Positions 14,323 to 62,897 of a DNA stretch of 64,000 nt are shown here, piece after piece. Location of the stretch: the IMG/VR virus record IMGVR_UViG_3300045988_110026. The stretch is one strand, 5' to 3'. Each line of letters starts with the position of its first letter. Within the stretch, counting starts at the first letter, position 1. The translations under genes were made by a program, and so were the position numbers. The notes beneath the pieces were generated by a model. The model was given only the letters and a program-made list of their open reading frames with translations. It searched no databases and was not told the origin of the DNA. This DNA comes from a virus.

Positions 14323-14634
14323 TTAATCTAATAATTTTTCAATTTTAATTGATTTTGATGATAGATACATATTCCATGTTCCTCTGCCTCTGTCACCTTT
14401 TTCGTTTTGTTTTTGGATTGTCAAGTACAGATCTCCGTCTTCACATACTTCAACTTTTTTCAAGAAGCCTATCATTTCATCTCCTGTTTCGTGTAAAATA
14501 CGGATCTTACCTCCTTCTTTTAACCCATAATTGGAATCAAAGTATTCTTTTTTGATTCTATCAATATTGTCTTTATGGTTTTTTATAGCATAAAGCTCTT
14601 TTCTTAATAAATAATTTAGTTGTTCTATTGTCAT
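14323..14634 (-). CDS. hypothetical protein
   Basis: 103 aa. Confidence 0.45.
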   Translation of the reverse strand: MTIEQLNYLLRKELYAIKNHKDNIDRIKKEYFDSNYGLKEGGKIRILHETGDEMIGFLKKVEVCEDGDLYLTIQKQNEKGDRGRGTWNMYLSSKSIKIEKLLD

Positions 14635-15188
14635 TTCTTTTCCTCCTTGTTTAATGGTATCAACCCTTTTCCATGCTTGTCATACCACAGCATAGCTATA
14701 CAGTTCCATGCACATTGTGCAAGATGAAAACATCCTGTATCGGAATCCACTCTTTCCCCTTTCATGTATTCCATTAGGTGTCTGGCAGCCGCAGCACGAT
14801 ACCGTTCAAACCCGTTGTCAAGGTTCTGCCATTTATTGGGTCCGTACTTCTTTGCACCAGCATGATAGACTCTTACAATATCCTCAATCTCTTTCATTGG
14901 AAGCAAATCCCATCGTAGTTTGTCGTCAATGATGTCATTTTTCACCGATTTGTTTTCTATGGGGTCTTTGGTAAGAATAATATCCATAATATCCGTTTCT
15001 ATGACGAACGTCTCCCCATTGCAACAAACCTCAGCATATTTATCATTTACTTCTATGTCTGATACTGCCTCCGCTATAGCTCCTTTGACGATTTTAAATT
15101 CGGCACTGATTATATCATCTTTTAATATGCGAAAAATAGATCCTTTTGGATAAAGGATATTTTTAGTATTATCATCCATCTTTTCCAT
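14631..15188 (-). CDS. protein with C-terminal MazG-like dATP/dGTP pyrophosphohydrolase-type domain
   Basis: C-terminal half LRWDLLPMKEIEDIVRVYHAGAKKYGPNKW...AARHLMEY...DSDTGCFHLAQCAWNCIAMLWY fits the phage all-alpha NTP-PPase signature (KYG..nW, RH, D.dsG.HlA...N.LaLl). Confidence 0.55.
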   Translation of the reverse strand: MEKMDDNTKNILYPKGSIFRILKDDIISAEFKIVKGAIAEAVSDIEVNDKYAEVCCNGETFVIETDIMDIILTKDPIENKSVKNDIIDDKLRWDLLPMKEIEDIVRVYHAGAKKYGPNKWQNLDNGFERYRAAAARHLMEYMKGERVDSDTGCFHLAQCAWNCIAMLWYDKHGKGLIPLNKEEKK

Positions 15189-16361: not shown

Positions 16362-16724
16362 TTATGCGCCTATGGCTGCCTCTAAATTCCCTATAATACC
16401 AGTTTCTATGTCATTGATTTTATCATCAATGGTTGAAACCGCATTCTCTAAATCCCCTACAATACTTTCTATATCATCAACAACCGCCTCCATATTAGCT
16501 ACAGCCTCATCTGATTGATAATATCTTTCTGTATCTTGTAACGACTCCGGCATATTATCTCTTGCTTCCGTCTCTTCGTCTAAAATCATATCAACATCAT
16601 CCTTGGCTGAATCCAGATTATGCCTAACCTCTGACAGCTTTGATTTGATAAACTCAAGATCTGTTTTATGCTTTTCCAAATTGGAAATAATATCCTCTAT
16701 TTTCTTACGTCTTTTGCTGTTCAT
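16362..16724 (-). CDS. hypothetical acidic coiled-coil protein
   Basis: 120 aa. Confidence 0.45.
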   Translation of the reverse strand: MNSKRRKKIEDIISNLEKHKTDLEFIKSKLSEVRHNLDSAKDDVDMILDEETEARDNMPESLQDTERYYQSDEAVANMEAVVDDIESIVGDLENAVSTIDDKINDIETGIIGNLEAAIGA

Positions 16725-18142
16725 GCTTTTATTCTATTATAATATTCGATAATCTTTTCTTTCCTGTCTCCTGGTTTTACTGCCATATTCTCAGCCAAGA
16801 ACCTAAAATACGACACTGGTATGTCCTTGAATCTAATTCCTTCATATTTTCCAAACCACATTATTATGCTGTCAAGATCGTCTTCTCTCCTACCATCTCC
16901 ATTCACAGATTTAAGCGAGGCTGCCCGACGAAGGATCTCGTCTTTGGTAATAATATCACCCATCCTTATATTAGACAGAAGTTGATCGCCGGCAAACATA
17001 CACCAGCCCTTAGAAGGGAATTGCTCGATTGTCAGGTCTTCTATCCGACCAAAGCGTCTCATGTTGTCGCAGCAATCAACTATCAGCGCCTCTTTCTTGT
17101 CAGGATGGATGCGGACGGCGCGGCCTAATATTTGGTAATAAGTTGAATATGAGAAAGTTGGTCGACCAAACATCACACAATCAAGTTCAGGGAAATCAAA
17201 TCCGGTAGCAAGCGTTGAATAATTAAAAACCACCTTCAACTTACCTTCTTTGAAATCGGATATGATTTGCTCTCTTTTCTTTTTGGTTGTTAGCGATGTT
17301 ACGACACCGGTTATGGCTCCCATCCTGGCATTCATGAACTCTGATATTCTATTACATGATTCGATAGAATCCATGCAAACCAAAATGGCTTTACGCTCGT
17401 TCATAAGTTGAAGAAGGCGCTTGTAGATAGAGTTGTTTAAGCCGTTTCGTACAATACTTTCTTTAATAGATTCGTTGGTGTATTCGGCTCCGGTACTGTT
17501 TAACATCAGAGCCGATTCATCAAACGACCATCGTTCGTACTTAAGTGGACACCAAAACCCTTGAGAAGTTAGTTCTTGTATTTGAGTCACATGAACTATT
17601 TTCTTGAAGAAGTTATGCTCGTCTTTCGTCAGCATATTGAGCTTGCTATAGTTCCCTTCCAGCATGGAACTGTAGGTTCGGAGGCGGCAGGGAGTGGCGG
17701 TGAAGCCCAGTACCTTCGCCTCTGGAAACCCGTTCATAAACTCCATAAATTCAGAACCTTCTTCAGGAGAATATCCTGAATGACATTCGTCTATCAATAA
17801 GGTATCTATCCCTATATCCTTCAACCTCGCTACATCTTTCTTTATGCTCTTTAATGTTGCATAAGTCATAGCCGACAGCTCCTTTATACCACATGAAGCA
17901 GAATATATAGTAGGTTTAGAACCGAATGATACGGCCTTTGCATAATTCTGCTCCAGAATCTCTTTTGAGGGCTGTAATACTAATGTCGGTCTATTTATTT
18001 CATGTGCTATCTTGGATATCAGAAGGCTCTTTCCACATCCGCATGGGGCTACGATTATGCCAGGCTTCTTAGATCTTCCTGCAAGAAACTTAAGCCCGGC
18101 ATCTACTGCTTCTTTTTGGTAAGGTCTAAGTTCAAAGCCCAT
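16721..18142 (-). CDS. SF2 DNA/RNA helicase (DEAD/DEAH-like, DECH box)
   Basis: LRPYQKEAV (Q-motif-like), APCGCGKS (motif I), LLIDECH (motif II), FTATP (III), QILGRAVR (VI). Confidence 0.8.
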   Translation of the reverse strand: MGFELRPYQKEAVDAGLKFLAGRSKKPGIIVAPCGCGKSLLISKIAHEINRPTLVLQPSKEILEQNYAKAVSFGSKPTIYSASCGIKELSAMTYATLKSIKKDVARLKDIGIDTLLIDECHSGYSPEEGSEFMEFMNGFPEAKVLGFTATPCRLRTYSSMLEGNYSKLNMLTKDEHNFFKKIVHVTQIQELTSQGFWCPLKYERWSFDESALMLNSTGAEYTNESIKESIVRNGLNNSIYKRLLQLMNERKAILVCMDSIESCNRISEFMNARMGAITGVVTSLTTKKKREQIISDFKEGKLKVVFNYSTLATGFDFPELDCVMFGRPTFSYSTYYQILGRAVRIHPDKKEALIVDCCDNMRRFGRIEDLTIEQFPSKGWCMFAGDQLLSNIRMGDIITKDEILRRAASLKSVNGDGRREDDLDSIIMWFGKYEGIRFKDIPVSYFRFLAENMAVKPGDRKEKIIEYYNRIKA

Positions 18143-19014: not shown

Positions 19015-20034
19015 TCATCGCTTTATCTTTTTAGACGGATCCCAATCTGAAGAGAAAGGGCATTCGTTTTTGTTATGTAATCCAAAGTCACAATAATAAC
19101 ACAGTGCCGACGGGCAGGGTAGCTTGTTTTGCGAAACAGGCTGGCTTAGGGTGGCACGCCGCTTGCTATACCTGGCTCCTTCTGCTCCCTGGATGTACGC
19201 TTGAAATGATTTTACACTATTATCTTCAAAATCATACATTTTAGATAAAGTGTCATTTAGCATCTCTATAGATTTTGTTTTACGTTCCTCATCCACTTTA
19301 ACCTTTTGGTATTGTCTGGTCCTGGTAAAGAAATAGATGTTCATATCTGGCAGAACTCCACCATATTTTCTATAGATGTAAAACGAATATATAGGATGCT
19401 GTAAATTCGTTTCCAACTTCTTAGAATCAAAAACCTTATTACCTGATTTCCAATCTATGACATAATGGTGAACTACGTTCTTGCTCTTTATAGCCAGATG
19501 AAGATCTACCGATCCTACTATGTACACATGTGTATGAACGTCACCATTTATATCAACAGGCTTAGGAAGACGATACGGCAGCACAAAATCTTCTTCGACT
19601 CCAATTATAGCGCCGTGTCTGATAAGTTTCTCACAGGGATTAAGATCACTATCAGCTATCATAAACCTATTGCCGTCTTTTTTGAACAGATCCACAATCC
19701 AAGCAAGAAGCTCCCCAGATTGTTTCATGGCTATCATCATATTTTCCGGTGATTGCCAAGGTATGTCTTCTTGATAGGAATAGTAACTTATCGCTTCTCC
19801 AAGGTCTTTACCAGAAGGCTGTCTTCCGTTCTTAAAGAAGTATTCCAGTGTTTTATGGATAACCGTACCATAAGATGTAGCTTCTTGTTTTTCTGTAGAC
19901 CTTTTACCCTCTACGTAAGTCTTATACCATTTCATTGGACAAGTAAGAAACGTATCTATCTGGGAATAAGATATGGCAAGACGTTTCACACCATTAAACT
20001 CCTTATATAGCAAATGTGTTTCCGGGACCATCAT
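19015..20034 (-). CDS. Cas4-like / RecB-family PD-(D/E)XK exonuclease with Fe-S Cys cluster
   Basis: N-terminal SYSQIDTFLTCPMKWY plus GTVIHKTLE; IDWKSG (D-x-K); Q..IYSFYIY (QxxxY); C-terminal CPSALCYYCDF...NECPF. Confidence 0.8.
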   Translation of the reverse strand: MMVPETHLLYKEFNGVKRLAISYSQIDTFLTCPMKWYKTYVEGKRSTEKQEATSYGTVIHKTLEYFFKNGRQPSGKDLGEAISYYSYQEDIPWQSPENMMIAMKQSGELLAWIVDLFKKDGNRFMIADSDLNPCEKLIRHGAIIGVEEDFVLPYRLPKPVDINGDVHTHVYIVGSVDLHLAIKSKNVVHHYVIDWKSGNKVFDSKKLETNLQHPIYSFYIYRKYGGVLPDMNIYFFTRTRQYQKVKVDEERKTKSIEMLNDTLSKMYDFEDNSVKSFQAYIQGAEGARYSKRRATLSQPVSQNKLPCPSALCYYCDFGLHNKNECPFSSDWDPSKKIKR

Positions 20035-36661: not shown

Positions 36662-37122
36662 TGTGAATCATATTTTCTTTCTCTCCCGCTGTCTTCCCCT
36701 ATCGGATTGTCCCATCCATATTTTACAGCCGTAGCTTTAAATAGAGGGAGTCCATAAAATGCATAATCATCCTCACTCCAGCCTTCAAGACCTTCTTCCA
36801 GAATGTAGTTCCACATCATCACACATTCAAACATCAAACTGGCTGATATTCCTCTCTGATTTAATGCCTTTTCAAAACCGAATCTTACGTCTTCTTCAAG
36901 CTGTTTCAGGACATTTTCTCTGGTAAATTCAACTACAGTACTGTTCCACTTTTCCTCGTTGTCATATTCTTCATTCGGCTCCATACCGAAATCCTTTATC
37001 ATGCTATATGGAACAAATTTAGCCAGTCTGTTAAAATCTCTACCGTCTAAACATTTTGATGTTAATTCTTTAAGTTGTTCTAATGTTTTCATAAGCAATT
37101 TTGTTTTATAGGTTAATCCCAT
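36655..37122 (-). CDS. hypothetical protein
   Basis: 155 aa; 10-bp overlap with the upstream NTase gene. Confidence 0.45.
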   Translation of the reverse strand: MGLTYKTKLLMKTLEQLKELTSKCLDGRDFNRLAKFVPYSMIKDFGMEPNEEYDNEEKWNSTVVEFTRENVLKQLEEDVRFGFEKALNQRGISASLMFECVMMWNYILEEGLEGWSEDDYAFYGLPLFKATAVKYGWDNPIGEDSGRERKYDSQC

Positions 37123-37790
37123 CCTCCAGTAGCATACAAAGATACATCTTCCTCCTCTACATTTACACCTTTAAGAGCCTGTAGAAGTTTTTTCTTTGCC
37201 TCCCGGCACATATTGTAACCATATCCTTTATACCGATATGAGCGTTCCCATGTGCTTACTGGAAAAGGAATATTTTCATCAATGACCAGTCTCTTCATAT
37301 GAAGATGTTCGAAGAATTTCTCATGGTAGAGTAGTTTGTACTCGTATGCTACTATACTTGCAGATGAGAATGGAAAATAATCATCTTCCTCTTCTTCGTA
37401 TTCCTCTTCTTCGTATTTAGGCTCCTTGTAGTAAGCCATTTTTGCCACAGTAAAGTCGAAGCTCCTGAGAATCTCTTCTGGCTTTCCGAACTCTGACTCT
37501 ATGAACTCTACCCATACCTTTTCTCCCTCTTTCTGGAATGCGCATACCTTCTCATTCCTGTACTTAAATTTCCATCCTTCTTTCTGATGTTTTTCATCAT
37601 TGAACAAATCAACAGCTTCCTGAAAATCGTCTTCGCTTTCAAAGAAAATATCAATATCTTTTACTTTTTCTCCGGAAAGGATATTCTTAAAACATCCACC
37701 AGCTATGAACCCCTTGTGACCTTCCATATATTTGTCAAGCCATCTTATTTGCCAGAAATTATCTGGAGTATCTATTATAAAATTGTTCAT
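37113..37790 (-). CDS. truncated class-II tRNA nucleotidyltransferase / poly(A)-polymerase-family head domain
   Basis: FIAGGCFKNILSGEKVKDIDIFF matches (GGxVRDxLLG....DxD); LRSFDFTVAKMAY matches (RRDFTINA); only 225 aa. Confidence 0.65.
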   Translation of the reverse strand: MNNFIIDTPDNFWQIRWLDKYMEGHKGFIAGGCFKNILSGEKVKDIDIFFESEDDFQEAVDLFNDEKHQKEGWKFKYRNEKVCAFQKEGEKVWVEFIESEFGKPEEILRSFDFTVAKMAYYKEPKYEEEEYEEEEDDYFPFSSASIVAYEYKLLYHEKFFEHLHMKRLVIDENIPFPVSTWERSYRYKGYGYNMCREAKKKLLQALKGVNVEEEDVSLYATGGWD

Positions 37791-55294: not shown

Positions 55295-55462
55295 TTGAAT
55301 TTTGTAGAATAAACTCACATTATGCCGTTTTAAAGCACTGTAAGTCTTAATTTTGTAGGAAAACCCTACATAATGCTGTTTTAAAACGCTGATCTGTTGA
55401 ATTTTGTTGGCAGGAACTACATAACGCTGTTTTAAAACGCTGTAAGTCTTAATTTTGTGGGA
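55295..55462. repeat. tandem direct repeats, ~51-bp unit x ~3.3
   Basis: Units start at 55295, 55347, 55397 and 55449 (TTRAATTTTGTDG...ACATWAYGCYGTTTTAAARCRCTG...). Each holds a CGCTG-TTTTAAAA-CGCTG core. Confidence 0.7.
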
Positions 55463-56688: not shown

Positions 56689-57161
56689 AACAGCCCGTAA
56701 TTAGTACGTAGTTCTTGCGTACAGGCTCGTACTATGTTGTTATTATATTTTCCGTCCGCTACACAACTTAGCCACAAATAAAGGCGATTGTGTCCTTGCG
56801 TTTTGATACGGCACGTCCCTACATGGTAGGCTACATGCTTGTACCCTGTAATTTAATCTACAGCCTTGTTCTATTTTTCGTGTAAGCAAGTAAGACACGT
56901 TTCGATCTGGAGATAAACCTCGTACAACGGCATGTTTTCCAAACTGTAATCACATACCTAACATAAACCATACCTATTCGGATAGTCCATGCAGTAATAC
57001 CAGCCCTTTAATTGCCAACGGCAAGGGCAACGGTATATCTATCTCCAATATGTAAAATAACTCTCTGTTTTGTCAGCTTCAGTCTAAAGCATACGCGGGA
57101 CGTGCACCCACCAACAACGGCGCACAGACGCGTTTAAAGGTACGCGCCCAACCTTGTTTTT

Positions 57162-57764
57162 TCACTGCTGATTACTTTCGTGTGCTAAATACTCAGATAC
57201 GCACTTTGCAACGGTGCGGATAGAATAAGACTTAATCTTAACGGCCACATAAGTGGCTTTATATTCGTCCGTCTCTTTAACGATCCATTTTGCACTACTT
57301 TTCGTTTCCAACGTTTCCGCGGTTGCAAATCCGAAAGGCTTATACTCACCGCCATAAACTACATTATCGGAACACCAATCAGCCGTTTTTGCCTCAATTC
57401 CTTTCTCTTTATCTACTTTGCTATCCTTATATACTTTAGAGTATAGGGAAAACTTAACAAAGGTATCATCAACTTTTGGTAACATTTGGCTACACACAGC
57501 CACCAGGCGTTTTTTATCCTTGGCCAGAGATGCAACCTTTACAGCGTATTCTGCCGGTATTTCCAAGGCCTTGCAAATAGCCTTTAGATCAGCTCCATTA
57601 GCAAATAGAGCGTTGTACAGTTTAACAGCACCTACCAAATTTGCAGCATTTTCTTTGATAACGGCATTCTGTAGTTTGTTTACATTTTTTTTCGTAATCA
57701 TATCCCAATATATTTTAATTGTTAAACAAATGATATTCAAATTAATGACCCACAAAGCAGGCAA
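57162..57764 (-). CDS. hypothetical protein (start possibly at internal Met, 57701)
   Basis: 200-aa ORF; Ala/Lys-rich; follows a ~550-bp repeat-rich leader. Confidence 0.5.
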   Translation of the reverse strand: MPALWVINLNIICLTIKIYWDMITKKNVNKLQNAVIKENAANLVGAVKLYNALFANGADLKAICKALEIPAEYAVKVASLAKDKKRLVAVCSQMLPKVDDTFVKFSLYSKVYKDSKVDKEKGIEAKTADWCSDNVVYGGEYKPFGFATAETLETKSSAKWIVKETDEYKATYVAVKIKSYSIRTVAKCVSEYLAHESNQQ

Positions 57765-57927
57765 TTACAGATACATATATAGCCAGCCCAACGGGCACAC
57801 TATATAGGATCACTATGTTAACTCGTAATCTCTCTCGATCACGACGCAAATATACGACATTTATCAATATTACATATATATATGCTATATTTTTTTTGTT
57901 AACTTGTATTAATTTCGATTCTATTAT

Positions 57928-58076
57928 CTGATTATCAGTAAGTTACAAAAAACACAAGAGCAGTATTACACGCGTACATTAATATGTAGGATATATTCTT
58001 ATTTAAGTGGCTTATAATCAATAGGTTATAATAACACATTGATTATCAATAATTTAAATAAGTGATTGATAATCAG
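57928..58076. promoter_or_regulatory. cluster of TTGATWATCAA-type palindromes (57928-57938 CTGATTATCAG; 58039-58049 TTGATTATCAA; 58065-58076 TTGATAATCAG)
   Basis: Read directly. A fourth perfect copy, TTGATAATCAA, is at 55878-55888. Confidence 0.45.
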
Positions 58077-58097
58077 AGAGTTTGTGGGTTTGAGGTA

Positions 58098-58149
58098 AAA
58101 CGCGTTTCCGGTTTTCCAGCGAAGGGGGTGCGGGGGAGAAAACGCGTTT
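58098..58149. repeat. two copies of AAAACGCGTTTC(C)GG (palindromic core AAACGCGTTT) 42 bp apart
   Basis: 58098-58107 and 58140-58149. Confidence 0.45.
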
Positions 58150-58181
58150 CGGGGGCGGGAGGTTCGTGATAGGTACCCCCT

Positions 58182-58262
58182 CTCTCCCATCACATAAACC
58201 TCTTTCTCATATCTCTCCCATCACATAAACATTTCACCATTCCTCTCCCTCATCACATAAAA
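58182..58262. repeat. three phased 18-bp iteron-like direct repeats CTCTCCCATCACATAAAC (starts 58182, 58213, 58243; the third has a 1-nt insertion)
   Basis: about 31-bp periodicity, read directly. Confidence 0.55.
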
Positions 58263-58310
58263 ATATGGGGAACCTATCCAAAGTTCCCCATACTTATTTT
58301 ACGACGGTAA

Positions 58311-58703
58311 TTATTTACTTTCCCATATTAGTTTATCTTCGGCTATTCCGATCTTTACTTCCTCGCACTTTCTCCCTATCCATCCATTGAGATACGAGAA
58401 TGGTTCTGAGTTTTTTACTTCTTCTCCTAAGAAATTAAAAGCTTCAGTAGAAACATGGGATGCTTCATGGCAAACTGTTTCAAAATCAATTATTTTCTTA
58501 TTAAGAAACCATATCAAAAATCCCGTATTAGGATTTAATTTACACCCTCCGTATGGAACGGATACAGTTACAGCCTTGCTATTATCTACGTAACTAAAAT
58601 CGTTATTGAAACATTCTACCATGCCAGATACGTCTTTTCCTACGTATATCCACAGATTAAAAGGATAGACTTCCGGATAGAACTGATATAATTCACGCTT
58701 CAT
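58311..58703 (-). CDS. small HExxH-motif protein (putative zinc metallopeptidase-like)
   Basis: VCHEASHVSTEAF; 130 aa. Confidence 0.45.
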   Translation of the reverse strand: MKRELYQFYPEVYPFNLWIYVGKDVSGMVECFNNDFSYVDNSKAVTVSVPYGGCKLNPNTGFLIWFLNKKIIDFETVCHEASHVSTEAFNFLGEEVKNSEPFSYLNGWIGRKCEEVKIGIAEDKLIWESK

Positions 58704-59656
58704 TTCGATAAAAGTTTTTTACTTTCAAGGAAGTCCTTAAACTGGTCACTTGATACGTCTATAACGAATCCAGCAGCACCAGCATGTCCTCCACCACCGA
58801 ATCTCTTACTTACCTCACAGCAATCTACGCTGTCTTCTACGCATTCGTAAAGAGAGAACCTAACCTTACCACATGGCATGATACAAAATGGCATCAGAGC
58901 TTTAATTTTTCTACCGTCTAACCAGTCCGGTGTAAGAGAATCAAATACCTTAGAGCTAAATTCAGCGGTATTCATAGCCACTACCTTCACCTCGTCGACG
59001 TAAGCTTCGAACGAGTACCTACTTACCTCATCTTCGTTTTTACAAGCCATGTAATTAATTATAGCACGTCCTTCTTTAGCAAGATCATAAAAAATAAGAT
59101 CAATTTCATTGTCTTTCATGTTTTCTTTAAAGTGATCATATAAATACGACAATGCAATCAATACATTGAGTCTTATTTTTGATCTCAAGGCATACTGGAC
59201 AGCTACTACCGTATCCCAGCCTAAGCCAGATTCTTTATTCCACACATCGTAGTCTGACAGGCATCGGACGATCGCCGGCACCTTCCCCATCAGCAGGTCC
59301 GAAGCCAGTGCGCACGCACCGACACCGACCCTCCTCAACCCTGGAACTACGAACCCCCATGTCTTACTGTCCTCAATAATTCCCTTGTGGTGATCTATCC
59401 ACATCAGGCTCTTCCCTTCATCAAGCCACTTTTTGAAAACAGTTTTAGAATCGGCTCCAAAAGACACGTCAAGAACATAAACAACATCTAAGTCACGTAC
59501 TTGGTCAACAACTTTCTTAACATCATCTTCATACGAATACGGGATATAAACAACATCCTTGTTTTTACTGTTTTCGTACATGGTTGCGATGGCTGCCGAT
59601 ACAACGCCATCTAAATCCGATTTATGATAAACTATCGCTGTTTTCTTTACTTTCAT
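58700..59656 (-). CDS. DHH-DHHA1 phosphoesterase (NrnA/DhhP-like)
   Basis: HKSDLDGVVSAA (motif I DxD), WIDHHKG (DHH), C-terminal GGGHAGAAGF (DHHA1 GGGH). Confidence 0.75.
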   Translation of the reverse strand: MKVKKTAIVYHKSDLDGVVSAAIATMYENSKNKDVVYIPYSYEDDVKKVVDQVRDLDVVYVLDVSFGADSKTVFKKWLDEGKSLMWIDHHKGIIEDSKTWGFVVPGLRRVGVGACALASDLLMGKVPAIVRCLSDYDVWNKESGLGWDTVVAVQYALRSKIRLNVLIALSYLYDHFKENMKDNEIDLIFYDLAKEGRAIINYMACKNEDEVSRYSFEAYVDEVKVVAMNTAEFSSKVFDSLTPDWLDGRKIKALMPFCIMPCGKVRFSLYECVEDSVDCCEVSKRFGGGGHAGAAGFVIDVSSDQFKDFLESKKLLSK

Positions 59657-60563
59657 GATATAAGCTTGTATATTTGATACTACCGTCTTTTAATGTTTCT
59701 ATTTTTATAACATCACTATATGAATTAAAATTCTGATCTTTATCAATCCTTATATTCAGCACATCATCTACGGTTGCAGTTTTTCCATCATCGGTTTCAA
59801 TCTTATAAAAATCTTTTAAAGTGATTTTTATATTAAGACCAACCCCATATGGATTTTCAAGGATATATATATGATCGTTGTTTAGAATAACTATTCCTTC
59901 ACTTGTATGTTCTTTGGACAATACATATTCTAAATCAAGATCTTTATCCAAAAATGTAGTAATATCCATATAGTTAATACCGGAATTATAGGCACATACC
60001 TTATCCGAATCAGAGAACTGCCCTGGCAGACCACTGGCGTCCCCGACCATCAACGAACATCCCTTAAGTTGACTGAAGTTCATACCGCGCATTACCGTGT
60101 CTTTACACTTCATAAGAATATCATCAATCATGCCCGTATTAGGCTTCCTCATCGGATTTTGTTCGTCATTTGAATAACACAACCTTTTTTCATATAGGAC
60201 GCCTCTTATACCTCTCTTTACCGCCAGATCATGTACGGACCTCAGTACGTATTCTATCTTAGCTTCAATATCAGCTCCAGAAACAAACCCAGCTTCTACT
60301 CCTCCTTGATTGCTTACGATAGCAAATACCTTAACACCGTTCTCCTGCATGAGGTCAAGAGCCTTATTCACCACATCCATCTTAATCCTCATATCTGTCA
60401 AGTCTGTAGCGAACGTATTCCCAGAAGCGGTTTCTATAAGCGTTCCATCAAAATCAAACAATAATATTCGTTTGGATTTTATATCAATATCTTGTACCAT
60501 ATCATTCTCCTTTCTCAAACTTACTTTTCTTAATCTCTCTCGGAACCAGGCAGAACACACCAT
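59622..60563 (-). CDS. HAD-IIIA phosphatase of PNK-3'-phosphatase / GmhB type with extra C-terminal domain
   Basis: LLFDFDGTLIE (DxDGT), IVSNQGG, RKPNTGM, MVGDASG; about 140 aa of unassigned C-terminus. Confidence 0.7.
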   Translation of the reverse strand: MVCSAWFRERLRKVSLRKENDMVQDIDIKSKRILLFDFDGTLIETASGNTFATDLTDMRIKMDVVNKALDLMQENGVKVFAIVSNQGGVEAGFVSGADIEAKIEYVLRSVHDLAVKRGIRGVLYEKRLCYSNDEQNPMRKPNTGMIDDILMKCKDTVMRGMNFSQLKGCSLMVGDASGLPGQFSDSDKVCAYNSGINYMDITTFLDKDLDLEYVLSKEHTSEGIVILNNDHIYILENPYGVGLNIKITLKDFYKIETDDGKTATVDDVLNIRIDKDQNFNSYSDVIKIETLKDGSIKYTSLYHESKENSDSLS

Positions 60564-60924
60564 CTTCGTCCTTAACCTTCACAATATCATAAACCGCATA
60601 CTGATTATCACCGATATCCCAACCTAACGAAGACAGTACATCACGGAGGTAAATACGTCTATATTTATCACCTTGTTTATTTAATAAAAACGATCTCTCG
60701 TCTTCTACCTTAGAAGGAGCTATATACAAATTAGAATCCAACACCCCTTTAAACTCAGCTCCTTCTTCCATACCAATAATAACCGCATCTTCGATACCCA
60801 TCCATTTCAGATTGTCCACCGATATGGTCATAATCCGATCTTTGCTAATAGAAAGCTTTCTGATTTTAGCTTCTTTTGTCTTAGAACCTACATAGGTTTT
60901 ACTGCTTAAAAAGTTTATCTTCAT
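60502..60924 (-). CDS. hypothetical protein
   Basis: 140 aa; overlaps the downstream gene by 62 bp. Confidence 0.4.
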   Translation of the reverse strand: MKINFLSSKTYVGSKTKEAKIRKLSISKDRIMTISVDNLKWMGIEDAVIIGMEEGAEFKGVLDSNLYIAPSKVEDERSFLLNKQGDKYRRIYLRDVLSSLGWDIGDNQYAVYDIVKVKDEDGVFCLVPREIKKSKFEKGE

Positions 60925-60931
60925 GATATAA

Positions 60932-60989
60932 TGTTTTTAAATTGTATCGCAAATATACGCAATAATATAAACAATACAATTTAAAAACA
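60932..60989. repeat. 16-bp perfect inverted repeat TGTTTTTAAATTGTAT / ATACAATTTAAAAACA with 26-nt spacer
   Basis: read directly; sits between minus genes 61004..62209 and 60502..60924. Confidence 0.55.
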
Positions 60990-61003
60990 ATTAAAATATG
61001 ATA

Positions 61004-62209
61004 TTATAATACAGGTAATTTTTTGAACTGCTCTGGAGCCACCTCGGATATGATTCCACGGAAAGCAAGACGCGAACCGAAGTACGAACTCGCGCTCAAC
61101 GCGTTGCGAGACGCATACGCATACGCCACGCCACTACTCGTATCCGAGCCGCTATAGGAGCGCGCCAAAACAATGGAGTTGCTCGATGTCTGACTATAGT
61201 AATCTGAATAATGCATGGAATCGTTACCGCCAACATTTGTCGGCACCACATCGAAAAACGGACCGTTTTCCGCTGCGATATTCGTTATCCAGCCATTGGA
61301 AGTTCCGGCGTTCACATTGCGAGTCGATCCGTCTGGGTCGGTGATTTTCCAAACTCGGTTGTTGATTTCTACACCTTCAACCCATTCATAGATACCACCA
61401 AAAACCCCTTCCAAACCTAAGCCGCAAACGTACTTTGAACTTTCGTTTTTGGTATCCGCACCGCCGGTTGCGTTGCTGCTTCCCGTTGTTGTAGCCGGAT
61501 TATTATTTGCGCCACCTAATCCTAATACAGATTGAATATTACGTGTTTTGTACTTAGCATACAACATCATAGCAATCACGCAATGTTGTTGAAAATCTAT
61601 CATCTGAAACCCGGTACCACGCGCTTTCGCATAACCTTCAAAATCGTTGAATGATTTTGAAGTTGTAGGACTAACACCACTCCAGCTATATAATCCATTC
61701 AAAGATACATATCCTTTATATGCTCCAACAAGAGATTCCGGAACATGAATGTAAGTGCCATCGATATCATGATCAGCAAAATGATAAAGAAATCTATTAT
61801 CATCCACCTTATACCATTTATACCAAAATTCTAAGAAAACGACCATCACATCACCTTCTGGTCCGGTAAGAACAGCCGGACTGCCATCAAGATATAAGTT
61901 ACTGTCGCTATCTTTTAACCTACATACAAAAACCTCTCTTCCTCCCATAGCGCTCTTGCAAAGAACTCTATAAAATCCACTTGTAATCAACCTGTATAAA
62001 AAATCGCCATCTTCACTTATTGTTATATTAGCCGGATCTGATACAGATTTATCAAAAACTATAAAATTATCAGTAGGGAGATTACCCCCCCCCACTATTT
62101 TATTAAAAAATCTTCTTCTCATGATTGTCTTATATTTTAGGTCAAATATAGATTTTAATTTATAAACATGAATAATATGATTTTCGTGTAATAAACTTAT
62201 ATTTGTCAA
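61004..62209 (-). CDS. protein with FGE-sulfatase / C-type-lectin-fold-like C-terminal region (possible fibre or receptor-binding protein)
   Basis: GVFGGIYEWVEG and C-terminal ...SYFGSRLAFRGII resemble FGE / DUF1566-type motifs; Gly/Ser/Asn/Thr-rich central region. Confidence 0.45.
   Translation of the reverse strand: MTNISLLHENHIIHVYKLKSIFDLKYKTIMRRRFFNKIVGGGNLPTDNFIVFDKSVSDPANITISEDGDFLYRLITSGFYRVLCKSAMGGREVFVCRLKDSDSNLYLDGSPAVLTGPEGDVMVVFLEFWYKWYKVDDNRFLYHFADHDIDGTYIHVPESLVGAYKGYVSLNGLYSWSGVSPTTSKSFNDFEGYAKARGTGFQMIDFQQHCVIAMMLYAKYKTRNIQSVLGLGGANNNPATTTGSSNATGGADTKNESSKYVCGLGLEGVFGGIYEWVEGVEINNRVWKITDPDGSTRNVNAGTSNGWITNIAAENGPFFDVVPTNVGGNDSMHYSDYYSQTSSNSIVLARSYSGSDTSSGVAYAYASRNALSASSYFGSRLAFRGIISEVAPEQFKKLPVL
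62198..62205 (+). promoter_or_regulatory. -7 promoter element TATATTTG (TAnnTTTG) for the + gene at 62241
   Basis: 36 bp upstream of ATG. Confidence 0.45.
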
Positions 62210-62224
62210 GATATTAATTAACTA

Positions 62225-62232
62225 CAAAATTA
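62225..62232 (-). promoter_or_regulatory. divergent -7 element TAATTTTG (minus strand) 16 bp upstream of minus-gene start 62209
   Basis: reverse complement of CAAAATTA read directly. Confidence 0.4.
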
Positions 62233-62240
62233 TTTATGTC

Positions 62241-62897
62241 ATGGCAGAAATGAAAATAGGTTTTGTAACCTTCAATCCAGGATCAGGTGATGGTGATCAG
62301 GCGGTTACCGTATCAGGTGAAAAATACGAAGGTCGTGTACAGCGCACGCAACAAGTAGAATTTGGTGCCGAATCCGGGGGCGTTAAGAAAAGTGCTACCA
62401 TAAACCAATCTCCGGCAGCTGAGTTTGTAAAAATAGATCCTACTGCATCTGTAGGGAAAGAAGGTGGTACTGTAACAATCAACGGTACAAGTAACTCAAC
62501 TAAATTAACGTTCTCTTTAACTCCGGACGAGACTCATCCTCTGACGTTAGAAATACCTGCCAGTTATCAAGCGGCAGGCAAGGCTACCAACAACGGCGCT
62601 GTTATTGCCGACGACCCTGGTGCAACAGGATCTTTCGCTTTCAGTATCGTATTCTCCGATATTGCAGAGAACGCTGATGTAAACGATCTGGTAAATACTC
62701 TTAAGGTGACGGCCTCCGGTGGTCAGACAGCCAATACGGTTATTACCCAGACAGCAGGTGATCCGTTCTTGGAAATAGACAAGAATGTAATCAACTTGGA
62801 TGCAAACGGTACTCCTCAGACTATCAACGTTAATGCAAACATCAAGTGGACTATCACGCAAGCTGTTTCTAAGTTGGTAAGGAAAGTAATGAAATAA
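62241..62897 (+). CDS. Ig-like / BACON-like repeat protein
   Basis: Three beta-rich repeats (VTFNPGSGDGDQAVTVSG; GGTVTINGTSNSTKLTFSL; TPQTINVNANIKWTI). Lone + gene with its own promoter and terminator. Confidence 0.5.
   Translation: MAEMKIGFVTFNPGSGDGDQAVTVSGEKYEGRVQRTQQVEFGAESGGVKKSATINQSPAAEFVKIDPTASVGKEGGTVTINGTSNSTKLTFSLTPDETHPLTLEIPASYQAAGKATNNGAVIADDPGATGSFAFSIVFSDIAENADVNDLVNTLKVTASGGQTANTVITQTAGDPFLEIDKNVINLDANGTPQTINVNANIKWTITQAVSKLVRKVMK

Follow-up and report, generated by a model that had tools for sequence, protein, structure and literature searches.

A tightly packed and translationally coupled operon of four genes is located on the minus strand, in an early/replication arm, of the 64,000-nucleotide stretch of viral DNA analyzed here (IMG/VR record IMGVR_UViG_3300045988_110026, hereafter the window). 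The operon encodes an orphan protein of 140 amino acids (ORF140), a HAD-family protein (HAD) predicted to be a stand-alone 3′-phosphatase of the PNKP/Tpp1 type, a DHH-DHHA1 protein (DHH) predicted to be a metal-dependent exonuclease or phosphodiesterase, and a small HExxH protein. The explanation that we favor, tentatively and with confidence that falls somewhat short of even, is that the operon serves 3′-end cleaning together with exonucleolytic trimming or recycling in phage DNA metabolism. A sequence-only reading of the window had grouped the HAD, DHH, and HExxH genes as a three-gene module, and its three adjacent minus-strand open reading frames (ORFs) at 58311-60563 were placed exactly. 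The conserved unit is nevertheless a different one, ORF140-HAD-DHH, with the HExxH gene as an optional fourth member. In the clade sample, which comprises 71 IMG/VR loci, HAD and DHH are adjacent without exception (71 of 71). Of the loci that could be assessed, 68 of 69 have an ORF140 homolog directly against the start of HAD, and only 29 of 67 (43%) have the HExxH gene.

The first gene of the unit, ORF140 (60502..60924), occurs as two allelic types (∼99 and ∼61% identity) and its product has no sequence match in Pfam, NCBIfam, PADLOC, PHROG, or PDB. A single base separates its stop codon from the start of the HAD gene (TGAtATG). In its longest form the HAD ORF spans 59622-60563 and encodes 313 residues; the start is most likely at 60500, giving a protein of 292 residues, because the TGAtATG lies at the ORF140 stop, many of the closest homologs have 292 residues (others are called at 313), and the GenBank protein of a related genome, OR575929, has 290. 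The catalytic domain would then comprise residues 1-185 (59946..60500) and an optional, beta-rich C-terminal domain residues ∼186-292 (59622..59945). The DHH gene (58700..59656, 318 residues) overlaps the HAD gene by 35 nucleotides in the window, and across the clade the spacing is −35 nucleotides where HAD is long and +9 or +12 nucleotides where it is short. The DHH gene in turn shares an ATGA overlap with the last gene, which encodes the HExxH protein of 130 residues (58311..58703). The HAD, DHH, and HExxH genes are all under purifying selection in clade members, the median ratio of non-synonymous to synonymous substitution rates (dN/dS) being 0.14 (DHH), 0.15 (HExxH), and 0.18 (HAD core).

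The adjacency of HAD and DHH persists despite variation in the HAD C-terminal domain, in the HExxH gene, and in a tail-fiber-like gene upstream, and despite the insertion of an HNH/RRXRR gene in two loci. In these two (L019 2271-3321 and L020 6869-8062) an IscB-like gene of 397 residues with RRXRR (Pfam, E = 2.3e-51) and HNH (E = 1e-10) domains lies between HAD and DHH and shortens the HAD C-terminal domain. Fusions of HAD to DHH were also seen, in the single-member clusters P0004, P0015, and P0018 (380-536 residues, PF08645 and PF02272 both being detected in two of the three), and these may be real products or assembly errors that arose through a frameshift in the 35-nucleotide overlap.

The type of the HAD phosphatase was assigned by sequence and by fold. 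Pfam PNK3P (PF08645) is matched with E = 5.9e-21 (75.3 bits, cut-off 22) and the NCBIfam equivalog_domain model for DNA 3′-phosphatases (TIGR01664, DNA-3'-Pase) with E = 9e-20, the score of 71.2 bits being under its cut-off of 107.65, while the model of the HAD-IIIA subfamily was passed (51 bits, cut-off 44.6). A sequence search of PDB gave the mouse PNKP phosphatase domain (E = 2e-6). With the AlphaFold model of the protein [overall predicted local distance difference test (pLDDT) 89], Foldseek gave mouse PNKP at E = 6e-11, GmhB/HisB at ∼6e-6, and T4 Pnkp at 0.09, and the structural neighbors in BFVD are PNKPs of giant viruses, NRK-1/HisP-like proteins of baculoviruses, and a 138-residue crAssphage protein auto-annotated as GmhB. 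The motifs that had been read from the sequence alone (DxDGT, SNQ, KPxxGM, and GD in HAD; DxD, DHH, and GGGH in DHH; HExxH in the small protein) are all present. Those of HAD take the form D16xD18GT (DFDGT), S63-N-Q, K119-P-N-x-G-M (RKPNTGM), and G153-D154...D166 (GDASG...DSD), and they vary little or not at all among relatives of 34-43% identity, with D16, D18, T20, N64, Q65, K119, G153, D154, and D166 invariant in the family alignment. Two family-specific blocks that align with PNKP and follow motifs I and IV are likewise invariant, 'SGxTFxxxxxD' and 'GDASGxxGQFSDSDxxxAxNxGIxYxD'.

Because sequence and fold both point to PNKP as the best match, and because the family blocks are retained, HAD is predicted to be a PNKP/Tpp1-type 3′-phosphatase that stands alone, and to be neither of the T4 type nor a GmhB. 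The sequence-only reading had likened it to the 3′-phosphatase of T4 polynucleotide kinase and to GmhB; of this, a phosphatase of the polynucleotide kinase kind stands, and the specific likeness to T4 and to GmhB does not. A GmhB/HisB sugar-phosphatase was rejected on two grounds, the low scores (20-25 bits versus 150-178 for GmhB, and 27 versus 140 for the HisB N-terminal domain) and the neighboring genes, which are those of phage replication and nucleotide metabolism and not of lipopolysaccharide or histidine synthesis. Relatives of HAD number 819 in 1.84 billion representative proteins, and most are stand-alone proteins of ∼170 residues with 35-47% identity. No kinase domain was detected in ten longer homologs (PNK3P was the only Pfam domain), and the HAD protein itself has no Walker A motif.

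The C-terminal domain of HAD had been estimated at 140 residues and left unassigned; it comprises ∼105 residues, which are mainly predicted beta-strands (AlphaFold pLDDT ∼80-90), and gave no PDB or BFVD match beyond the HAD core. It is present in 30 of the 71 clade loci and cleanly absent from 32, and it evolves faster than the core (dN/dS 0.42). A role as a reused module was rejected, as in the collected loci the domain occurs fused to the clade HAD alone. A second stand-alone HAD of the PNK3P type is encoded in several clade genomes (L233, L246, L247, and L258, which lie on the same contigs as L062, L113, L031, and L017, respectively). This copy is ∼59% identical to cluster representative P0352 and is situated ∼30-60 kb from the HAD-DHH operon among tail-fiber-like and TnpB genes. 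Neither the window nor OR575929 contains a second copy of HAD or DHH.

The DHH protein appears to be catalytically intact, since H11, D14-L-D16, D63, D88-H89-H90, D137, and G288-GGH291 are all invariant in a 25-sequence family alignment that extends down to 30% identity. Pfam DHH is matched at E = 1.9e-5 (25.4 bits, just under the gathering score of 28.1), Pfam DHHA1 at E = 1.1e-5 (26.3 bits, passing the cut-off of 25.9), and phrog_4771, 'DHH phosphoesterase', at E = 1.8e-25. A profile of the family, searched against PDB, finds as its best match over both halves 6mtz_A (E = 5e-9), an uncharacterized DHH protein from structural genomics, in which the residues 'SLR' precede the GGGH motif where the phage family has a near-invariant 'SLY'. 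NrnA, TmPDE, Rv2837c, and GdpP are matched by the profile through the GGGH region of DHHA1 only (1e-5 to 1e-7), RecJ-type proteins appear at E = 1e-3 or weaker, and the NrnA structures, at E = 0.12 with the single sequence and 1e-5 to 1e-6 with the profile, are again matched in the DHHA1 region only. There is no nanoRNase match in NCBIfam. One homolog of ∼30% identity bears the Joint Genome Institute name COG2404, 'NrnB/cAMP/cGMP phosphodiesterase'.

Homologs of DHH (687 were found) are nearly all on phage-sized contigs. A pattern-based scan of prokaryotes (one genome each from 185,579 species) confirmed at least 20 weak relatives among the matches listed, with at most 43% identity, or at most 30% for matches spanning more than ∼60 residues, and among these listed matches no informative cellular operon containing DHH was seen. 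A full RecJ was rejected, both by score (TIGR00644 gave 19.6 bits versus 396.9 and covered residues 2-91 only; archaeal RecJ gave 14.5 versus 360) and by size, as the 318-residue protein has neither an oligonucleotide/oligosaccharide-binding (OB) domain nor any other added domain. Hence neither a RecJ-like DHH nor a sugar-phosphate HAD with metabolic neighbors, the pairing that the sequence-only reading had named as counting against it, was found. The family call made at that stage is valid for the two-domain DHH-DHHA1 organization, which is like that of NrnA and NrnB. Judged from its sequence, DHH would represent a clade of DHH-DHHA1 enzymes that is specific to phages, similar in size to NrnA and NrnB, and only distantly related to NrnA, NrnB, and RecJ. 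A metal-dependent exonuclease or phosphodiesterase is predicted, and its family membership is compatible with more than one substrate.

The small HExxH protein has a single family match, phrog_1365 (E = 1.7e-7), for which PHROG gives the function as unknown. Its motif, HEASH at residues 79-83, is on a helix that follows predicted beta-strands in a low-confidence AlphaFold model (pLDDT 47), and H79, E80, H83, and E100 are invariant in homologs down to 18-30% identity. These invariant residues fit a minimal metal site of the gluzincin type. No Pfam match, no meaningful PDB match with either the single sequence or a profile, and no match to SprT/ImmA-type profiles was obtained. Homologs are spread through Bacteroidia phages without a consistent partner. 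In Porphyromonas phages they are flanked by the genes for portal and minor capsid proteins, in a Bacteroides LoVEphage they are upstream of a helicase, and in two unrelated lineages a homolog is directly upstream of DHH (L004) or of HAD (L271).

Several further observations concern this family. A second phrog_1365 paralog is encoded in OR575929 (74851-75264, E = 4e-11; L006 12852-13265), directly downstream of a gene for a TROVE/Ro60-like protein and two tRNAs. In a more distant relative (L134, 2541-3722 and 4001-4414) the HExxH gene, apparently split, follows a gene for an M16 (insulinase-like) peptidase and not DHH, and a gene of 180 codons further downstream is syntenic with 57162-57701 of the window. 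The commonest HExxH allele, P0247 (123 residues, 79 contigs), is frameshifted at its C-terminus after about residue 112, and in several cluster representatives the HExxH motif is lost through internal deletions.

Genomic context was the most informative kind of evidence, and the neighborhoods of more distant homologs provide the link to DNA metabolism. In a sister lineage of gut contigs of 80-157 kb, 79 of 80 loci have the same order of genes, encoding a PD-(D/E)XK nuclease, one further protein, an SF2 helicase, DHH, several small proteins, and a MazZ-like dATP/dGTP diphosphohydrolase. The window contains the same recombination/replication block, with the PD-(D/E)XK nuclease at 19015-20034, the SF2 helicase at 16721-18142, and the MazZ-like enzyme at 14631-15188 (PF18909, E = 6.7e-26), and its proteins are 52-57% identical to those of the sister lineage, but the block is without DHH, which adjoins HAD instead. 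The DHH proteins of the clade and of the sister lineage are only ∼35% identical, and the position of DHH beside HAD rather than beside the helicase would be explained by either relocation or replacement. The MazZ-like enzyme also hints at a modified or sanitized purine pool. Comparable contexts are found for DHH in other phages, in the order DnaB, PD-(D/E)XK, DEAD helicase, DHH (L002), in the order PD-(D/E)XK, helicase, methylase, HExxH, DHH, methylases (L004), and, in a 44-kb phage, in the order PD-(D/E)XK, AAA_24 (Sak4-like), DUF669, ParB/methylase, DHH (L319). Stand-alone HAD homologs adjoin genes for ThyX, uracil-DNA glycosylase (UDG), a metallophosphoesterase, and radical-SAM, PAPS-reductase-like, and methylase proteins. 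Intein-like insertions were noticed in two genes, encoding a ThyX with LAGLIDADG (L079 3622-5388) and an SF2 helicase with Hint and LAGLIDADG (L003 478-2946).

Such neighborhoods fit DNA replication, recombination, repair, and nucleotide metabolism and not a variable anti-defense island. The view taken from the sequence alone, that the genes look like counter-defense or the repair of RNA and not like core replication, is at odds with the placement of DHH orthologs in a recombination/replication block, with the occurrence of HAD near ThyX and UDG, and with the lack of anti-defense domains nearby. No anti-defense family (such as Acb1, Apyc1, or AcrIII-1) was detected among the module proteins by Pfam, PHROG, or PADLOC, nor near the operon by Pfam or PADLOC, a result that covers these sources and no dedicated anti-defense database. 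The association of the two genes with each other is nonetheless limited to the clade, as neither HAD nor HExxH is within 6 kb of DHH in any of 80 distant DHH loci, and DHH is not within 6 kb of HAD in any of 78 distant HAD loci.

The setting of the operon within the phage genome is best seen in OR575929, a 151-kb genome from the human gut with which the region 57000-62300 of the window shares 85.6% identity across 68% of its length. This genome is named 'phage csAssE-Sib' in GenBank and crAssE-Sib, an epsilon crAss-like phage, in print (PMC11054128), and the phage of the window is placed in the same group of gut phages. Epsilon crAss-like phages have genomes of ∼150 kb, encode no DNA polymerase (PMC7886860), and possess a minimal set of replication genes (PMC7886860; PMC11054128). 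They account for 13-18% of crAss-like reads in the human gut (PMC7886860), and CRISPR-spacer matches suggest Bacteroides, Parabacteroides, and Porphyromonas as hosts (PMC11054128). The operon belongs to a very long arm of minus-strand genes for early functions, replication, and nucleotide metabolism, and in OR575929 this arm runs from a helicase through ThyA, RuvC, beta-clamp, SSB, dUTPase, tRNAs, an MmcB-like repair protein, and an HU-like protein to the module, and from there through many small ORFs to a nucleotidyltransferase, primase, DnaB, a PD-(D/E)XK exonuclease, an SF2 helicase, a MazZ-like diphosphohydrolase, and a methyltransferase. The operon thus shares its arm with the MmcB-like and HU-like proteins, SSB, clamp, RuvC, dUTPase, and ThyA, and a tRNA cluster is 3.3 kb away. 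The orthologs in OR575929 are labeled 'polynucleotide kinase, 3 phosphatase' and 'phosphodiesterase (NrnA)' in GenBank, and the HAD and DHH genes are not discussed in the paper on crAssE-Sib (PMC11054128) nor in Yutin et al. 2021 (PMC7886860).

Based on these contexts, the two enzymes may act in series. In a first step HAD would hydrolyze a blocking 3′-phosphate on DNA ends or oligonucleotides to leave a 3′-OH, and in a second step DHH would degrade the now exposed single strand, or the oligonucleotide, to 5′-mononucleotides. This would benefit phage DNA replication, recombination, and repair, and the products could feed the dUTPase, ThyA, and MazZ-like enzymes. We infer that the substrate is DNA and that both enzymes act on the same molecule, and likewise infer the polarity of the nuclease. 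Given that epsilon crAss-like phages make do with a minimal replication set and no DNA polymerase of their own, accessory end-processing nucleases are plausible in them.

Several points weigh against this proposal and keep it tentative. The linkage of HAD to DHH is confined to one clade and represents one evolutionary event, so that adjacency by itself is weak evidence of cooperation, and it is for this reason that our confidence stays below even. The score of HAD is under the NCBI equivalog cut-off for a DNA 3′-phosphatase, and in ∼9 of the 71 metagenomic loci the HAD ORF is truncated or split, while DHH is intact in 70 of the 71. The characterized enzymes that are nearest in type to DHH, NrnA and NrnB, act on short RNAs (PMC12709177; PMC9757072), and one homolog carries the COG2404 'NrnB/cAMP/cGMP phosphodiesterase' label. 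A role at RNA ends is kept possible by the TROVE/Ro60-like protein, the nucleotidyltransferase of the Pol-beta type, and the several tRNAs encoded in the relative. Finally, the functions of both enzymes are read from sequences and predicted models.

A first alternative, which we consider unlikely, is that there is no functional module and that the operon consists of independent accessory enzymes that happen to adjoin through common descent within a single phage genus. HAD would then act as a phosphatase of nucleotides or DNA ends and DHH as a nuclease associated with replication, and the HExxH protein would be an unrelated small metalloprotein. Such independence agrees with the lack of linkage in all 80 and all 78 of the distant loci, with the second stand-alone HAD located far from any DHH in some clade genomes (L233 and others), with the loci in which HAD is disrupted and DHH intact, and with an optional HExxH gene whose relatives elsewhere adjoin portal and capsid genes or those for a helicase, a TROVE protein, or an M16 peptidase. 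It is less easily reconciled with an adjacency that is maintained in 71 of 71 loci despite extensive mosaicism around and inside the pair, and with coupled or overlapping start and stop codons that are kept in both the long and the short forms of HAD. The rare in-frame HAD-DHH fusions, which are possibly assembly frameshifts, and the HExxH homologs that adjoin DHH and HAD in unrelated lineages (L004 and L271) also argue against it.

Healing of RNA 3′ ends, in particular those of tRNAs, is a second alternative and a distinctly improbable one. HAD would strip the 3′-phosphate or 2′,3′-cyclic phosphate left by a host ribonuclease, an NrnB-like DHH would trim the end, and a nucleotidyltransferase of the CCA-adding type would rebuild it or a host ligase would seal it, in what would be a ligase-independent variant of the T4 Pnkp/Rnl pathway. 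The enzymes of the NrnB type are 3′-5′ exoribonucleases (PMC12709177), and a DHH homolog bears the COG2404 NrnB name. The operon is 3.3 kb from a tRNA cluster, and the phage tRNA-Cys (63903-63975) does not have its 3′ CCA encoded. The window also encodes a nucleotidyltransferase of 225 residues and of the Pol-beta type (37113-37790; phrog_4400, E = 6.5e-64; phrog_1614, 'nucleotidyltransferase', E = 1e-9), which in OR575929 is named poly(A) polymerase/CCA-adding enzyme in GenBank, and in the relative the gene for the TROVE/Ro60 protein is followed directly by that for the HExxH paralog. This nucleotidyltransferase is, however, ∼21 kb away and has no Pfam match, and the TROVE/Ro60-like protein is encoded in the structural arm of OR575929. 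The RNA-related genes of this group of phages are not linked to the operon, the DHH orthologs reside in DNA recombination/replication blocks and not near RNA-repair genes, and the phosphatase is of the PNKP DNA 3′-phosphatase type and not of the T4 type. Nor were the expected partners found, in agreement with the sequence-only reading, which saw no kinase or ligase in the window, and this holds also for the complete OR575929, where RNA ligase, DNA ligase, and polynucleotide kinase are absent from the 206 annotated features. A Walker A scan of the window and OR575929 recovered P-loop ORFs for helicases, DnaB, an SMC-like ATPase, and structural proteins only, and neither PHROG scans of ten larger early ORFs nor Pfam gave a ligase or kinase, although a very divergent ligase could escape such scans.

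We regard counter-defense as very unlikely. It would require that DHH destroys cyclic di- or oligonucleotide signals [c-di-AMP, those of the cyclic-oligonucleotide-based anti-phage signaling system (CBASS), or those of type III CRISPR] or pAp/nanoRNA, and that HAD removes phosphates from the products. There is precedent in GdpP, Pde2, and the membrane DHH nuclease of Sulfolobus, all of which degrade cyclic nucleotides, and Iyer et al. proposed that DHH proteins of some jumbo phages do so (PMC7824862). In addition, genes of the Acb2/Tad1-hairpin and Tad2-like types are 2-6 kb from DHH in L003 and L004. A literature search returned nothing usable on a phage DHH anti-defense enzyme, on 6MTZ, or on the roles of PNKP residues. 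The likeness of the phage protein to GdpP, Pde2, and NrnA is limited to the generic GGGH region of DHHA1, and 'SLY' in place of the 'SLR' of 6mtz means that substrate contacts are not simply transferable. Synteny fixes DHH in a replication/recombination block across many phages, unlike the variable islands in which anti-defense genes occur, and known anti-defense domains were not detected near the operon in the window.

A last and highly doubtful possibility, advanced by analogy with the eukaryotic Spartan/TDP1/PNKP route that clears blocked 3′ ends, is that ORF140-HAD-DHH, with or without HExxH, is a ligase-independent '3′-end rescue' cassette directed against ends of phage DNA or tRNA that Bacteroidia defense nucleases have left as 3′-phosphates, 2′,3′-cyclic phosphates, or protein adducts, the HExxH protein acting perhaps as a protease or accessory hydrolase and ORF140 as a specificity or targeting subunit, which if true would be a new type of phage counter-defense made of repair enzymes.

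Some features of the surrounding DNA are recorded here for completeness. Just upstream of the operon, and inside the early-gene arm, is a minus-strand ORF of 401 codons (61004-62209) whose product resembles tail-fiber or tail proteins (phrog_14959, E = 3.5e-46; phrog_5302, 'tail protein', E = 1.2e-32). This is an odd position for a gene of the structural type, and it is found in 40 of the 71 clade loci and not in crAssE-Sib. Stretches downstream of the operon that are largely non-coding contain two tandem repeats, at 58179-58261 (31 nucleotides × 2.6) and 55298-55458 (51 nucleotides × 3.2), the array at 55.3 kb being larger in relatives (as a repeated peptide in ORFs of L008). An Rfam scan of 50-64 kb gave the tRNA-Cys alone, and a scan for sigma-70 promoters and terminators gave counts that were not above those of shuffled sequence, the sigma-70 model being ill-suited to Bacteroidia promoters.

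The operon is not a new system in that both enzyme families are already known and the same genes are already annotated in a related GenBank genome. New are the assignment of the phosphatase to the PNKP rather than the T4 type, its optional C-terminal domain, the orphan ORF140 that constantly accompanies the pair, a DHH clade specific to phages and at home in a recombination block, and the wide and context-free spread of phrog_1365. Predicted stand-alone 3′-phosphatases of the PNKP type are common in gut phages. Because epsilon crAss-like phages are abundant, uncultured, and without their own DNA polymerase, conserved enzymes of the early arm hint at how they replicate on host machinery, and should the two enzymes indeed act one after the other, they would offer a simple and testable example of 3′-end cleaning in phage DNA metabolism.

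Among known systems, HAD is most like mammalian PNKP, yeast Tpp1, and plant ZDP, with which it shares the HAD-IIIA fold, the four motifs, and the family blocks after motifs I and IV. The phage protein differs from PNKP in having neither an FHA nor a kinase domain, in its optional, clade-specific, and beta-rich C-terminal domain, and in a score below the equivalog cut-off. With the tRNA repair system of phage T4 (Pnkp with Rnl1/Rnl2) the operon has in common a phage-encoded, HAD-type 3′-end phosphatase that could heal blocked ends, but no 5′-kinase domain or RNA ligase was detected in the window or in OR575929, and a DHH nuclease takes the place of the ligase as partner. DHH resembles NrnA (also a pAp phosphatase) and NrnB in its DHH-DHHA1 organization of ∼300 residues, its catalytic motifs, and its N-terminal 'YHxxDLDG', and is distinguished from them by the 'SLY' sequence, by its DNA recombination/replication context, and by having almost no cellular members among the matches listed. 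RecJ and archaeal GAN share the DHH core, and the sister-phage gene, directly downstream of that for an SF2 helicase and near that for a PD-(D/E)XK nuclease, recalls the RecQ-RecJ or CMG-GAN pairs, although the phage DHH is without the OB-fold and the extra domains of RecJ. The HExxH protein is reminiscent of zincins of the gluzincin type in its HExxH motif, in the invariant Glu 16 residues further on, and in the beta-strands predicted before the motif. In Xth, Nfo, and the phosphoesterase domain of LigD, 3′-phosphatase and 3′-trimming activities are combined and restore a usable 3′-OH. These enzymes have folds unrelated to those of HAD and DHH, and by analogy with them the two activities would, in the phage, be divided between two proteins.

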